Positions 13,846-60,760 of a stretch of 64,000 bases of DNA are shown piece after piece; the stretch's first letter is position 1; each line of letters begins with the position of its first letter. The notes under the pieces are model-generated. The model did not search any database and had not been told where the DNA came from. It worked only from the letters and a program-made list of their open reading frames with translations. Source of the DNA: Octopus vulgaris (Eukaryota); contig OX597820.1 in the NCBI GenBank assembly GCA_951406725.2, positions 77,686,001 to 77,750,000 of the forward strand, written 5' to 3'. Position numbers and translations under genes: made by a program.

Positions 13846-14048
13846 GGTCAGGACGCCATGATAGATCGTTAGCTCCTACACGCATTTTCCTCTCCTTGTT
13901 TTTTCTGTGTATCTTTCTGTCGAAGAGCGTAGGCTCGAAACGTAAAAGACTTGTTCTATTTCTATTCCTGAACTCCATACTAATACATTTGTTTGTTTGT
14001 ACTCCACCTGCCTTCGTCTTTTGTTTATTTTCGTAAACCTTCCCGTTA
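13846..14048 (+). mobile_element. (TA)n-flanked PLE-type terminal fragment carrying an HHR motif
   Basis: Bounded by (TA)n on both sides. Homologous to 37604-37750 on the opposite strand. Contains the HHR at 13912-13949. Confidence 0.65.
13912..13949 (+). ncRNA. Minimal type I hammerhead ribozyme, core variant (CUGUCGA)
   Basis: Stem I UCUUU/AAAGA, core CUGUCGA plus an extra A, stem II GAGC-GUAG-GCUC, then GAAA-CG-UA with palindromic ACGU. Confidence 0.6.
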
Positions 14049-16439
14049 TATATATATATATATATATATATATATATATATATATATATATATATATACA
14101 CACATATGTATGTATATATATTCATATGTGCATAACGTCCACACATATAAACACATGTCCATACAAACACACATGCACACTCAGAAATTTCTGAGTGTAT
14201 ATTTTCGAAAGAGTATATCAATAGCTCGCACCATTGTGTAGTATTTCGGATATGACTTTTCTCTTGGGAATTGTATTATTCTTCTAACTTGCGACAATGC
14301 CTTCTTCAATATTGTTGGATGAACGGTTTTCATGACATCGATCGTTACTTGACAATAGAAACAATTTAAATACTTGTCTTATTTACAAAGATATGCATAC
14401 ATATTTATTTTTAATCTGTACATGTTATTCTTTGAGGAATAATTTCGCCTTCACAGAAATCCATTTTGTCACGAGAAAAGTTGCAAAAATGTTTTTTTTC
14501 TTATTTCAGTTAATACAATTCTAGGGATTGTGAAGATGTAAATGTGATGTAGTTTGTGTGTTCATGCCGGTTTTATTCAGATATATTTGCATCCATGTAA
14601 TGCATGCTTTGTATAGAAACATTTGCGTGCATATTTCTTTATTACACGAAAGTGAGTGAGGAAGGTTTTTTTTTTTGGGGGGGGGGTCATATTTATGTGC
14701 ATGTATATCATATGTAGACACGCCATTCCTTTTCTCTGTTCATTTCAGGAAATACGAGTGAAGAATTATGGAATGTTTTACAAATTTTACAATACCGTTA
14801 ATAGATCGGTTTTGTAAATGCAAGTTAATTTATTATATTTCAAAAAGAATTGCATGAATCCTAGGCTTCTGATCAAGACTAGAGGAAAAGATGGTAGTGC
14901 GTGCAAAAAGGAATTTGTAGCCGATATACAAGGGATGTAAGTTGTGCATTAGTTCTCAATATATATTCATTAGTTTCACAATTCTAAGCTAAGCATTCGC
15001 ATTCACAGGGCAGATAAACACGTTCACAGCATGACAACTTATGCCTCCTTCAGAAAAATATTAGACATATTGGTTTTGCACCAATCTGAAAATGTTACAA
15101 TAATATTCCTCATTTATAACGGTTTGTGTACATTGTGGTTTTGATACGCCATATATATGATGGATGACCAGGGCACATATAACGCACATTATTTAAAGCG
15201 TCCATGAGTTAAGCAGAAGTAATTTCATGTTCCTGAATAGTAAAGGGATACCCCCCTAGGTATTATGTGATATAGCGATATATCAAGAATATATATCCCA
15301 GAATAGATACACTTCTCTTGAATGAAGTTTTTTCTATGACTTGTACCATATTTAGCCATACATACCTTAGCTTGCGGCTGCTATGTGGAGTATTTCCTCG
15401 CTATTGTGCTTACCGGGTTTTGTCAAGCTACATTCTGCTTGCACACTGAAATATTCTTTGCGTGTGTCACAACCGACTGTCGAGATGTAATTTCGTCTAA
15501 CGTGCACATTTCTCTCTTAAGTGATCCCTAATGGAGCGTGAGTGAAAATACGTGACACTCAAAGACAGTGTGGTATGGCCTTATCCGTCTTGTATCTAAC
15601 ATTCAGTCTAACGTAGATGTTCTTAGTGTCACTACGCACATGCAATCGTTAGAGGGGGTAAATATTCTTGATACCAATTCAGAGTCCTCTCCAAGTATCC
15701 GGTCTAATATCCGAATGTCGATCCCAACACCGGTTCTGTAATGGTGTCACGGAAGACAAGTATCATCGATTTTCTTAACGTCTGACTTCTACGGATACTT
15801 TTTTTGTCAGTAGCTTTCATGACACCATCAGAAACTTACACAACATTTCCACTAATTTAGAGATAAATAAGGCATTTATTTTTTTCTGGACATACGAAGT
15901 GGAAAAGTTTTTGATTACCGTATTCTCTATACATTGCTCATATTAGTCATTTATTCAGGATTAACTGCTAAATATGAACATTTACAAACAGGGCACTGAA
16001 ACGTTCCTTGCTTTGAGTAAAAGAAAATACAGGAGGAACAGTTAAGATTTTATCCAGCATATTCCCACCTGACATCCACGCACTAAATGTATTTAGTCCT
16101 TCAGCGCTTCTATGCCCTGTAAAAGAACTCGGAATGTTGGAGGCCCCAACCAAGTCTTTTACAATACTTTCAGTACCAGGAACGTTTCGGGATCTCCTCG
16201 TATACTAACTAAAAGGCATTCCGTGAGAATGGTGTAACGAGCTGTTTTGTTATCTTTGCATATTCACTAAATTATCTTCGTCAGTTTTATAGATAAGGTG
16301 TCGCAGTAGCATATTCCTTGCCTTCATCGTATGGAATCATGAATGTCTGACAATCCTTCGAAAATATTTAAATGGAATTCAGTACTCTGAACAAGCGAAT
16401 TCGTAATAAGTTGTCACTTTGAAAATTTATATATATAAA

Positions 16440-16775
16440 CCCGACAAGATTCTTTCAGTTTCCGATTAACAAATCGACTCACAAGGCTATGGTTGTCCTG
16501 AGGCTATAGTAGTATACACTTGCCCAAGTTATACGCAATAGTACCGAACCCGAAACCATGTGGTTGAGAGGCACACTTGTTACCACGCATCTAACCCTGG
16601 GCTATATATACATATATATATATATATAGTACTGGGGTGGTTTCTTTCCACGTAACAAATCCCTTCACAAGGCTTTGGTCATCTTGGCTTTTTAGTTGAA
16701 GAAACTTGCCCAAGATGCCATCAATAACTAATTGGTTGGGAAGCAAACGTCTTACTACACAGCTGGTTTTGTGCC
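16440..16775 (-). mobile_element. Two adjacent family-A SINE heads
   Basis: ctcacaaggctatggtt..ctatagtagtatacacttgcccaag..gaacccgaaaccatgtggttg, and a second ttcacaaggctttggtc..acttgcccaagatgcc..ggttgggaagcaa. Confidence 0.75.
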
Positions 16776-16924
16776 TTAAATGTATAGGTAGCAATAAACG
16801 CTACGTTCACATAGAGTAGAGATATTGTGTCTAAAAGTACAGAATCAAATGGAGTCGTTTAATTATGCGTTTCGTACATATTGACTATATTGTTCAGCAT
16901 TGTTCTCAAGTACTAGTTAAGCAC

Positions 16925-17439
16925 GTGGAGGCGGGTGGCCTAGTGGTTAGAATGTCAGCACCATGATCGTAAGATTGTGGTTTCGATTCCTGGACCTGGC
17001 GACGCGTTGTGTTCTTGAGGAAAACATTTCATTTCACGTTGCTCCAGACCACTCAGCTGGCAAAAATGAGTAACGCTGTGATCGACTGGCGCCCCATCCA
17101 GCTGGGAAACACATACGCTATAGAAACCGGGAAACCGGGCCCATGTGCCTTGCTAGCCTTGAAAAAGAGCGCATTTATTTTTGTGGAGGCACGTGGCTTA
17201 GTGGCTAAGATGTCAGTACCATGATAGTAAGATTGTGGTTTCGATTCCTGGACCTGGCGACGCGTTGTGTTCTTCAGCAAAACACTTCACTTCACGTTGC
17301 TCCAGTCCACTCAGCTGGCAAAAATGAGTAACGCTGAGATCGACTGGCGCTCCATCCAGCTGGGAAACACATACGGTATAGAAACCGGGAAATTGGGCCC
17401 ATGTGCCTCGCTAGGCTTGAAAAGAGGCACATGTAATTT
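16925..17439 (+). mobile_element. Head-to-tail dimer of family-C tRNA SINE inside one 14-bp TSD
   Basis: Two units of about 257 bp (16925-17182, 17183-17439), each with an A-box (TGGCCTAGTGG/TGGCTTAGTGG) and a B-box-like GTTTCGATTCC. TACTAGTTAAGCAC is repeated at 16911-16924 and 17440-17453. Confidence 0.9.
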
Positions 17440-17799
17440 TACTAGTTAAGCACACATCTAGACAATATTTTCTTCTGAAGCTTATCAGTCACCAAATAGT
17501 TCGTTTCGCAGTGATCTTGTAGACATGGGTATCTGTTTGTATGTGTTTTGTTTGTGTGTTTTGTTTGTGTGTGGGGGGGGGGGGGGGGTGCGTGTGTGAT
17601 GGTGGTCTCTGTATTTTGTAGAAAGGTTTGAAAATCCTTCAAGCAAGATTTGTTTTCATTCGGATTATTTCGGTATTCAACAGAAAACATAACTATATTA
17701 ACTGGCAGCAGGTGAAAGGAAACATGTTTACACTGGAAGAATGAACGTGTATTAGTAATTTTCCGAAATAACAAACACAGCAACGCAAATTTAGAAGCA

Positions 17800-59689: not shown

Positions 59690-59850
59690 GAGGCTGTGTA
59701 GGTACAGTGTTAAGACATTTTCTTCCCAACCACATGGGTCCGATTGCAGGCCCAGCATGACACCTTGGGCAAGTGCATTCTACAATAGATTCGGGCAAAC
59801 CAAAGTCTTGTAAGTAGATTTCATAGTCGAAAACTGAAAGAAGCCAGTCT
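59690..59850 (+). mobile_element. Family-A SINE head
   Basis: cttcccaaccacatgg..caccttgggcaagtgcattctac..aaactgaaagaagcc followed by (TA)n. Confidence 0.8.
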
Positions 59851-60317
59851 TATATATATATATATATATATATATATATATATATATATATATATATATA
59901 TATGAAATAGTGTACAAAATAGTTACGCGAAAGACGTGACCTTTAACAGGATACCTTACATGCTAGAATGGGCCGTCAAATCCCAAACCACAAATAAAAG
60001 TAATTTCAAAGAAATGAAAATAAAAAATAATATTTTTGGAGTTACCCCCAGTCTCAAGTTTCTGTATCAATGAGCAAAATAGATTAATTTTCCATCGTAC
60101 TTCTCAGTTAAGGTGCTAAACTTAATGCATACATATGCATCAAGTAGTATCGAAGTGTGTACTACACACTTCTACATTTTAATATTCAAATCCACAATGT
60201 ATAAATACAATATGAAAATATATATATATATATATATATATATATATATATATATATATATAATAAATATTAGGGAATAAATCCAAACTTACAGGGAAAA
60301 ATCAGATTTTTATATAT

Positions 60318-60518
60318 TATATTAAATTAGAGATAAAACCACTGTTAGGCAAATCATACAATGAAAAACTTAAGCCAATACATAAGATTATTTAATTTAT
60401 ATTATTTAAATATATAACAAAATTATTAAAAAAATATAAATTAAATAATCTTATGTATTGGCTTAAGTTTTTCATTGTATGATTTGCCTAATAGTGGTTT
60501 TATCTCTAATTTAATATA
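60318..60518. repeat. 86-bp near-perfect inverted repeat between (TA)n tracts
   Basis: Arms 60318-60403 and 60433-60518 with one mismatch. Related sequence at about 13055-13120. Confidence 0.9.
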
Positions 60519-60670
60519 ATATATATATATATATATATATATATATATATATAGTATGTGCGCGTGTGTGTGTGTGTGTGTGTGTGTGTGTGTCTATATA
60601 TATATATATAAGATGAGAAAATAGAGAGGTAGTTAATTCATTATTATTTATTAATTAAAAATTGGCAAAC

Positions 60671-60760
60671 ATCCATTACAGCTGTTTCAATTCAGACCCT
60701 CAGAAAATTTATTAATTATATTTAATACTATTTGAAAGTCGAATCTCTTCAGAGGTAGAT
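60671..60760 (-). ncRNA. Type I hammerhead ribozyme with a long loop II
   Basis: AUCUA-CC-U-CUGAAGA-GAUUC-(47 nt)-GAAUU-GAAAC-AGCU-GUA^AUGGAU: intact core, palindromic ACAGCUGU stem III, bulged stem I. Confidence 0.6.

Follow-up and report, generated by a model that had tools for sequence, protein, structure and literature searches.

Hammerhead ribozymes, (TA)n arrays and inverted repeat units in a 64-kb region of Octopus vulgaris: probable insertion debris of Penelope-like elements with two candidate non-autonomous passengers

The stretch of Octopus vulgaris DNA analysed here (64,000 nt; GenBank assembly GCA_951406725.2, contig OX597820.1, positions 77,686,001 to 77,750,000 of the forward strand; hereafter the window) looks like non-genic animal DNA of about 33% GC, in which (TA)n, (TG)n and (AAT)n arrays abound alongside transposon fragments and pieces resembling short interspersed nuclear elements (SINEs). 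Scattered among them are minimal type I hammerhead ribozymes (HHRs), designated below by coordinate, and inverted units with outward-facing ends. A preliminary description of the window ascribed these to a diversified community of unrelated, non-autonomous mini-retroelements mobilised in trans by the machinery of Penelope-like elements (PLEs). Our analysis confirms the observation in part and supports the interpretation in part: the HHR pieces are probably for the most part ordinary truncated PLE 3' ends, and non-autonomy is supported for two elements alone, a 560-nt tandem unit and a putatively tRNA-headed SINE whose head had gone unrecognised.

The HHRs were sought with a descriptor for the minimal type I motif, consisting of stem I (at least 4 bp), core 1, an optional extra base, stem II (at least 3 bp), GAAA, a 2-6 nt palindrome and UH, with at most one core mismatch. 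It matched five times, at 30245, 13912 and 41174 on the plus strand and at 50933 and 50373 on the minus strand, against a mean of 0.055 and a maximum of 2 matches in 200 dinucleotide shuffles made in 500-bp blocks, an excess that is somewhat flattered because the descriptor was composed after the candidates were known (an earlier version with stricter spacing missed 50373). With perfect cores only, three matches were obtained in the window and none in any of the 200 shuffles, and a looser scan gave 4 against a shuffle mean of 0.23. Complete CUGANGA, GAAA and UH cores accompanied by complete stems I and II occur only at 30245 and in the 50373/50933 pair, while 13912 and 41174 each carry a single core mismatch. 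Nine HHRs had been listed previously, 30245 not being among them; four (13912, 41174, 50373 and 50933) pass the descriptor and the remaining five fail it individually, 37693, 26282, 33340 and 35247 being decayed copies recognisable through alignment alone and 60671 having a broken stem I. The minimal, mostly palindromic stem III of the preliminary description proved self-complementary in all four HHRs tested (duplex energies of -1.7 to -11.1 kcal/mol). Half-motifs without core 1 at 36481, 40720 and 57205 were left uncounted, as the scan that gave them returned 6 loci where shuffles averaged 1.7. At 36430-36515, 40690-40740 and 57185-57225 a GC-rich hairpin is followed by GAAAC with no recognisable core 1, and the first of these look-alikes is an insert of about 90 bp between (TA)n arrays, within a palindromic element.

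The preliminary count of at least five HHR families holds as five lineages once 30245 is included: 13912/37693/41174, the SINE family (26282/33340/35247), 30245, 50373/50933 and 60671. As 13912 and 41174 are alignable over 87 columns, beyond the HHR itself (z 8.4), they form one lineage and are not unrelated as had been supposed; no mutual similarity was found among the other HHR families. The 13912 HHR has a stem I of 5 bp, a stem II of 4 bp, a 4-nt palindromic stem III and a U at core position 6, with a predicted cut after 13944. In the 41174 HHR, core position 14 is G and stem II, of 3 bp, is weak; the cut is predicted after 41204. Positions A6 and A14 of the hammerhead core are important. 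The 37693 copy is mutated in core 1 and at U16.1, and the sequence it has in common with 13912 starts at 13891, their 5' ends being different. The best HHR in the window is the complete one at 30245-30335 (stem I of 6 bp, stem II region of 60 nt, 8-nt palindromic stem III, predicted cut after 30329). That at 60671 also has an 8-nt palindromic stem III, with core 1 at 60752-60746, core 2 at 60688, the predicted cut site at 60677 and a stem II region of 57 nt (-12.0 kcal/mol).

In the (TA)n-associated group a (TA)n array follows the predicted cleavage site at a distance of 67-192 nt. Over five loci, of which three are related, this proximity has a Fisher combined p of 0.029 when arrays of 4 units are counted, of 0.011 with 5 and of 0.007 with 6+. 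For the 26282 family, whose (AAT)n is part of the element and not its target, no such association was found (p 0.17-0.29), so the proposed tie of every HHR to (TA)n or (AAT)n stands for the former group and fails for the latter. The loci 13912/37693, 41174, 30245 and 60671 are single 3' pieces of 150-260 bp that stop at (TA)n, precisely the form that 5'-truncated PLE insertions take, and because no common 5' end is seen they are not established as defined mini-elements. Tandem dimers at 16925-17440 and 18464-18800, with periods of 258 and 151 bp, represent two further SINE-like families, one of which typically terminates in (TA)n and so supplies targets for TA-seeking elements.

The 50373/50933 pair lies within a head-to-tail array of a 560-nt unit carrying one complete HHR per unit (50984-50933 and 50424-50373), each with U.U at the base of stem II and an 8-nt palindromic stem III, and with predicted cuts at 50937 and 50377, spaced 560 nt. 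The segment 50368-50430 has a minimum free energy of -7.9 kcal/mol, which passes the filter of Li et al. (< -5) and is not better than that of its shuffles. An inverted 5'-truncated copy adjoining the array extends 16 nt beyond the unit junction into (TA)n, and this reading across the junction implies that the template already held a head-to-tail junction; the ends differ by about 92 nt. The flanks carry a 122-bp direct duplication, possibly a long target-site duplication or a local misassembly. Open frames of the unit are 91 aa (minus) and 123-135 aa (plus); Pfam matches were absent in six frames, and the minus frame yielded 0 of 283 candidates in a word-seeded search and an Atlas top score of 0.77, which is not meaningful. 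Judged by its sequence, the unit appears young and fits the working definition of a non-LTR retrozyme (Li et al. 2026). A 44-nt hairpin at 50235-50278, in the 3' part of the unit and 3' of the HHR, is a candidate reverse transcriptase (RT) start or protein-binding site.

The 26282/33340/35247 family has the makings of a tRNA-headed SINE, comprising putative A and B boxes, an internal (AAT)n tract, a decayed HHR and a 3' end. In the uninterrupted copy at 26 kb the boxes are 45 nt apart; the spacing of 44-45 nt found in the two heads equals that of another SINE family in the window, the box patterns being hand-fitted, and the anticodon loop is one that we take to be Thr-like. Core 1 of the HHR lies at 26306-26300 and the core 2 region is deleted. 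The order of parts at 33279-35389 is that at 26 kb, plus two insertions nested in the (AAT)n, and both heads in the window are linked through (AAT)n to bodies with the same start (three bodies in total). Because the body 5' end adjoins (AAT)n at both loci, we regard the SINE as a fixed composite, and not as the tail of a SINE into which a PLE end was inserted. An inverted 5'-truncated copy joins the 5' end of the 35-kb head via a 4-nt overlap, and the last 26-30 nt of the body are present on the inverted-copy side only; an inverted 5'-truncated copy with a one-sided tail is the insertion signature of PLEs, which this arrangement appears to match. The majority of the three copies restores the 5' strand of stem I, core 1, the extra A and a 5-bp stem II, and a T4 run is absent from the 33-kb body and the 35-kb head. 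The product of the nested RT-encoding retrotransposon fragment had 85 matches among 311 candidates, with up to 66% identity to proteins of about 1200 aa with RVT_1 and zf-RVT domains. The element is probably R4/Dong-like, to judge from its REL-type motifs, its target and its (TTA)n flanks, and R4/Dong elements are reported to target (TAA)n (PMC7998251).

All six inversions noted in the preliminary description are present, and four of them (22784, 47102, 57305 and 60311) contain no HHR. An inverted 5'-truncated copy next to a 5' end is found with an HHR at 33279-35389 and 50181-51551, and without one in these four units. The 60311 unit has a single-arm relative at 13054, likewise adjoining (TA)n, and therefore retro-insertion fits better than terminal inverted repeats. 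On either side the 22784 inversion continues past the element for about 100 nt, into the (TA)n and compound microsatellite that flank it (22686-23130), which suggests that the target was copied in inverted orientation or captured by 3' read-through.

Table. Coordinates, strand and character of the elements and duplications in the window
Feature	Coordinates	Strand	Details
Insert of ~200 bp between two (TA)n arrays	13846..14046	+	minimal HHR 13912-13949; T-rich 3' end
HHR-less inverted unit	22784..23034	.	arms 61 nt, 98%; T-rich ends outward into (TA)n
Uninterrupted SINE, putatively tRNA-headed	26174..26505	-	head 26505-26432, (AAT)n-rich tract to ~26360, then body
PLE-like 3' piece with HHR	30229..30485	+	inside TA tail of another SINE, which it splits; then (TA)n
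SINE body	33279..33433	-	decayed HHR 33383-33340; without last ~26-30 nt found in other two copies
Insertion with nine 27-bp tandem repeats	33464..34186	.	repeats 33945-34186; (TTA)n both sides; nested in SINE (AAT)n; single copy in window
3' fragment of RT-encoding non-LTR retrotransposon	34369..35101	-	nested in (AAT)n; 172-aa C-terminus
Second tRNA-like SINE head	35140..35209	-	76% to 26-kb head; A/B boxes 44 nt apart; then (AAT)n
Inverted 5'-truncated SINE copy, body only	35206..35389	+	decayed HHR ~35248-35292; tail present
Decayed copy of 13912 family	37603..37749	-	79% over 171 columns; 3' end adjoins (TA)n
Insert between (TA)n arrays, distant relative of 13912	41101..41297	+	HHR 41174-41208
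HHR-less inverted unit	47102..48404	.	arms 84 columns, ~87%; ~1.15 kb AT-rich strand-biased sequence between
Direct flank duplication, 122 bp	50026..51972	+	50026-50147 and 51852-51972; 2 differences; long (TA)n before each
Head-to-tail array of 560-nt unit	50181..51224	-	one full unit (51224-50665), then 484 nt differing from it at 1 position
Inverted 5'-truncated copy of 560-nt unit	51224..51551	+	begins within HHR core 1
Older HHR-less inverted unit	57308..57968	.	arms 77-82%; between (TA)n arrays
HHR-less inverted unit	60311..60525	.	arms 102 nt, 3 differences; in (TA)n
HHR with intact cores and damaged stem I	60611..60760	-	3' end adjoins (TA)n

At 23164-23420 a further inverted pair, its 76-nt arms differing at 3 positions and separated by (TA)n, leads into a 2.5-kb AT-rich block at 23345-25900, and long palindromic elements resembling miniature inverted-repeat transposable elements lie at 26815-27156 and 35944-36748, with arms of 80% and 72% identity. 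The segment 44516-46452 has inverted ends of about 49 nt (96%), internal inverted segments and pieces of decayed ORFs resembling those of DNA transposons, and the decayed frames of 62480-64000 appear hAT-transposase-like by eye; neither has a Pfam match. Inverted repeats of 141 bp (97%) at 52422-52562 and 53981-54121 surround a decayed transposase-like fragment, copies of which lie at 36971-37424 and 52921-53379.

We consider it probable that the window holds the debris of target-primed reverse transcription by PLEs, together with two passengers mobilised in trans, the 560-nt unit and the SINE. The link to PLEs, which we infer from the motif excess, the T-rich 3' ends before (TA)n, the palindromic stem III, the six inversions and the match of these traits with published ones, is the part of the preliminary description that is well supported. 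A PLE protein with RT and GIY-YIG domains, presumably encoded elsewhere, would nick AT-rich DNA, mostly (TA)n, and copy the 3' portion of an RNA that carries its HHR about 70-200 nt from the end. Early termination would leave single 3' pieces such as 13912, 37693, 41174, 30245 and 60671, and priming from both strands would produce two outward-facing 3' ends, at times with a tail on one side only; the HHR-less inversions may be the same products, derived from families or truncations without an HHR. The retrozyme-like unit and the SINE, in which a presumed tRNA-derived RNA polymerase III (Pol III) head is joined through (AAT)n to an HHR and 3' end of the PLE type, would use this machinery in trans. 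Self-cleavage at 30245 and 50373/50933 would take place in dimers, via the palindromic stem III. Non-autonomy is supported for the 560-nt unit and the SINE, and not for 13912/37693, 41174, 30245 and 60671, which resemble truncated PLE ends.

No RT or GIY-YIG ORF was seen in the preliminary description, and we likewise demonstrated none next to any HHR. The coding search took in 85 ORFs of at least 90 aa. Pfam, applied to 42 frames from 7 regions, gave nothing credible; phmmer returned one spurious repeat protein only for one minus frame of 60900-62258, and a word-seeded search with one plus frame of 61300-61950 returned 0 of 213 candidates. Whole-window scans for PLE motifs gave no match, and a motif-pair test gave 0, yet 10 of 37 shuffles produced matches in that test. 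For decayed DNA, negatives of this kind are weak evidence. Exact DNA scans for two family motifs in prokaryotic genomes also returned 0. Three AT-rich blocks with a purine bias, at 23345-25900, 47180-48330 and 60700-62250, may derive from PLE ORFs that have decayed; PLE coding remnants proposed in these blocks from motifs seen by eye on both strands were rejected as unverified.

The missing coding partner counts against a PLE origin, and several other results weigh on the same side. Comparison of the window families with the octopus PLE consensus sequences in the supplement of Craig et al. gave 0 informative matches among 6 short motifs. In Rfam the hammerhead is absent among the best 150 of 181 whole-window matches and in all four local scans. 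With only 1-3 copies of each HHR family in the window, no compensatory stem change was found within any of them. As to the SINE, ARAGORN predicted 0 tRNA genes, and no tRNA match appeared among the Rfam matches listed or locally; the 26-kb head contains a T4 run; and core 2 with the cleavage triplet is not restored by the majority, one copy being deleted there and the other two disagreeing. The SINE bodies are moreover equally diverged (78-80%), and therefore the 33-kb and 35-kb bodies cannot be shown to share one event.

Four other explanations have to be set against PLE debris. It is very improbable that the HHR-like motifs arose by chance in AT-rich DNA, even though the descriptor was tuned after viewing, the Rfam matches listed for the whole window are microsatellite miRNA noise with none in support, and folding z-scores are near zero (none of 10 segments was better than its own shuffles): the three perfect cores against none in all 200 shuffles, the looser scan and the consistent placement before (TA)n largely refute chance for 30245, 50373/50933 and 13912. 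Assembly artefacts or microsatellite-driven fold-backs, which we think improbable as the source of the inversions and the 50-52 kb tandem, could account for the near-100% identity, the (TA)n arrays of 300-470 bp and the 122-bp flank duplication at 50-52 kb, and for the reach of the 22784 inversion into its host microsatellite. The arms of the other units, however, have diverged by 2-23% and are asymmetric, their junctions lie inside elements, and the 60311 unit has its single-arm relative at 13054.

It is somewhat less improbable, and still unlikely, that every HHR family is a defined non-autonomous mini-retroelement and that together they form a community mobilised in trans. None of the HHRs has an ORF attached, the inserts at 13846-14046 and 41101-41297 are both about 200 bp long between TA arrays, the 560-nt unit and the SINE appear non-coding, and many monomeric retrozyme copies are reported by Li et al. 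2026; the 5' ends of 13912 and 37693 differ, however, the other families are single copies, and 5' truncation is normal for PLEs. The strongest of the four, which we nonetheless doubt, concerns the SINE alone and holds that it was mobilised by a long interspersed nuclear element (LINE) with the HHR as cargo, 35102-35389 being one twin-primed insertion, with head and (AAT)n in inverted orientation relative to the body, and 33279-33463 a separate truncated neighbour. The geometry of 35102-35389, taken alone, fits the L1 model of twin priming: the break lies at the border of (AAT)n and body, with the 4-nt overlap, and the R4/Dong-like element sits in the same (AAT)n. Against this, a second copy of the family would have to lie by coincidence at a distance of 2 kb, separated from the first by nothing but insertions flanked by (AAT)n. 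There is moreover neither an array nor a head right of 35389, nor any poly(A) or repeat tail, and the last ~26-30 nt are missing from one body.

The synthesis offered in the preliminary description is largely known biology, because its traits have been published by Cervera & de la Pena 2014, Craig et al. 2021 and Li et al. 2026. Metazoan PLE HHRs are described by Cervera & de la Pena 2014 (PMC4209133) as having an extra base between 9 and 10.1, a palindromic stem III and many families per genome; truncated PLEs are given as the source of single motifs, and pairs on opposite strands are spaced by 100-700 bp. The minimal HHRs of the window agree with them in being type I, in the extra base after A9, in stem III and in forming several families of mostly single motifs with opposite-strand pairs; they differ in that two lineages have non-consensus core bases (U6 and G14) and in having no full PLE as an anchor. 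For PLE insertions an inverted 5'-truncated copy with a 30-40 bp tail on one end is reported (Craig et al. 2021, PMC8557442), and such inversions are explained by cutting and extension on both strands with two RT start sites, the HHR being dispensable in vitro for insertion of a Poseidon element (Frangieh et al.). Octopus harbours (TA)n-targeting PLEs of the Naiad and Hydra clades (PMC8557442). According to the same source, the Hydra clade, including Hydra-1_Obim, shares with the window the (TA)n target, an HHR about 100 nt from the 3' end and inverted 5'-truncated copies, and its HHRs have U or G after A9, U before G12 and a longer stem III, of 3-4 bp. A Hydra-like architecture, a likeness by HHR alone, is seen at 50373 (with its U.U stem II base), 30245 and 60671; unlike the consensus HHRs listed, to which there is no sequence identity, 30245 and 60671 have a much longer stem II. 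The cephalopod Naiad PLEs, for which PMC8557442 gives (TA)n targets, inversions, remnants and no canonical HHR, are a candidate source of the HHR-less inverted units, no homology having appeared when the supplement was compared by eye.

Animal retrozymes are argued to be non-autonomous PLE derivatives (Li et al. 2026, bioRxiv 10.64898/2026.07.22.740005), and the 560-nt dimer adds to this known class. It shares with non-LTR retrozymes an apparently non-coding tandem structure, one type I HHR per unit and a length within the reported 51-972 bp (Li et al. 2026; PMC7761336), and it differs from them in having two units only, an inverted copy and TA-adjoining ends.

The tRNA-headed HHR SINE is plausible as a new variant. 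Our literature search, to which Repbase, Dfam and most subscription papers were outside scope, found no account of a PLE mobilising a tRNA SINE. As a tentative proposal, which we hold to be possible rather than likely, the family would be an undescribed high-copy tRNA SINE with a PLE and not a LINE as its partner; its head would be fused via (AAT)n to a PLE pseudo-LTR containing the HHR and RT start sites, and would thus be free of the tandem arrangement on which PLEs depend for transcription, the internal (AAT)n offering R4/Dong-like elements a place to land. In the usual description SINEs parasitise LINEs. If the proposal is true, PLEs join LINEs as SINE partners and the minimal cis sequence needed by the PLE protein is marked; it would also bear on the purpose of PLE hammerheads, which the reviews consulted call unresolved. 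Since a monomeric Pol III transcript contains no tandem that could be processed, the role of the HHR would be tested directly by whether it is conserved or decayed across what would be thousands of copies. Retrozymes are described as promoterless (PMC7761336; Li et al. 2026), whereas the SINE of the window has putative A and B boxes. The closest likeness is to the Schistosoma SINEs Sm-alpha and Sj-alpha, which are non-autonomous and in which a Pol III promoter is followed by a type I HHR; these have canonical HHRs, often in tandem repeats, and no mobilising partner is named for them in the accessible text (PMC6765202, PMC6155905). The SINE of the window, by contrast, is dispersed, and combines a minimal HHR of the PLE type with an internal (AAT)n and a PLE-type inversion that appears to carry a one-sided tail.

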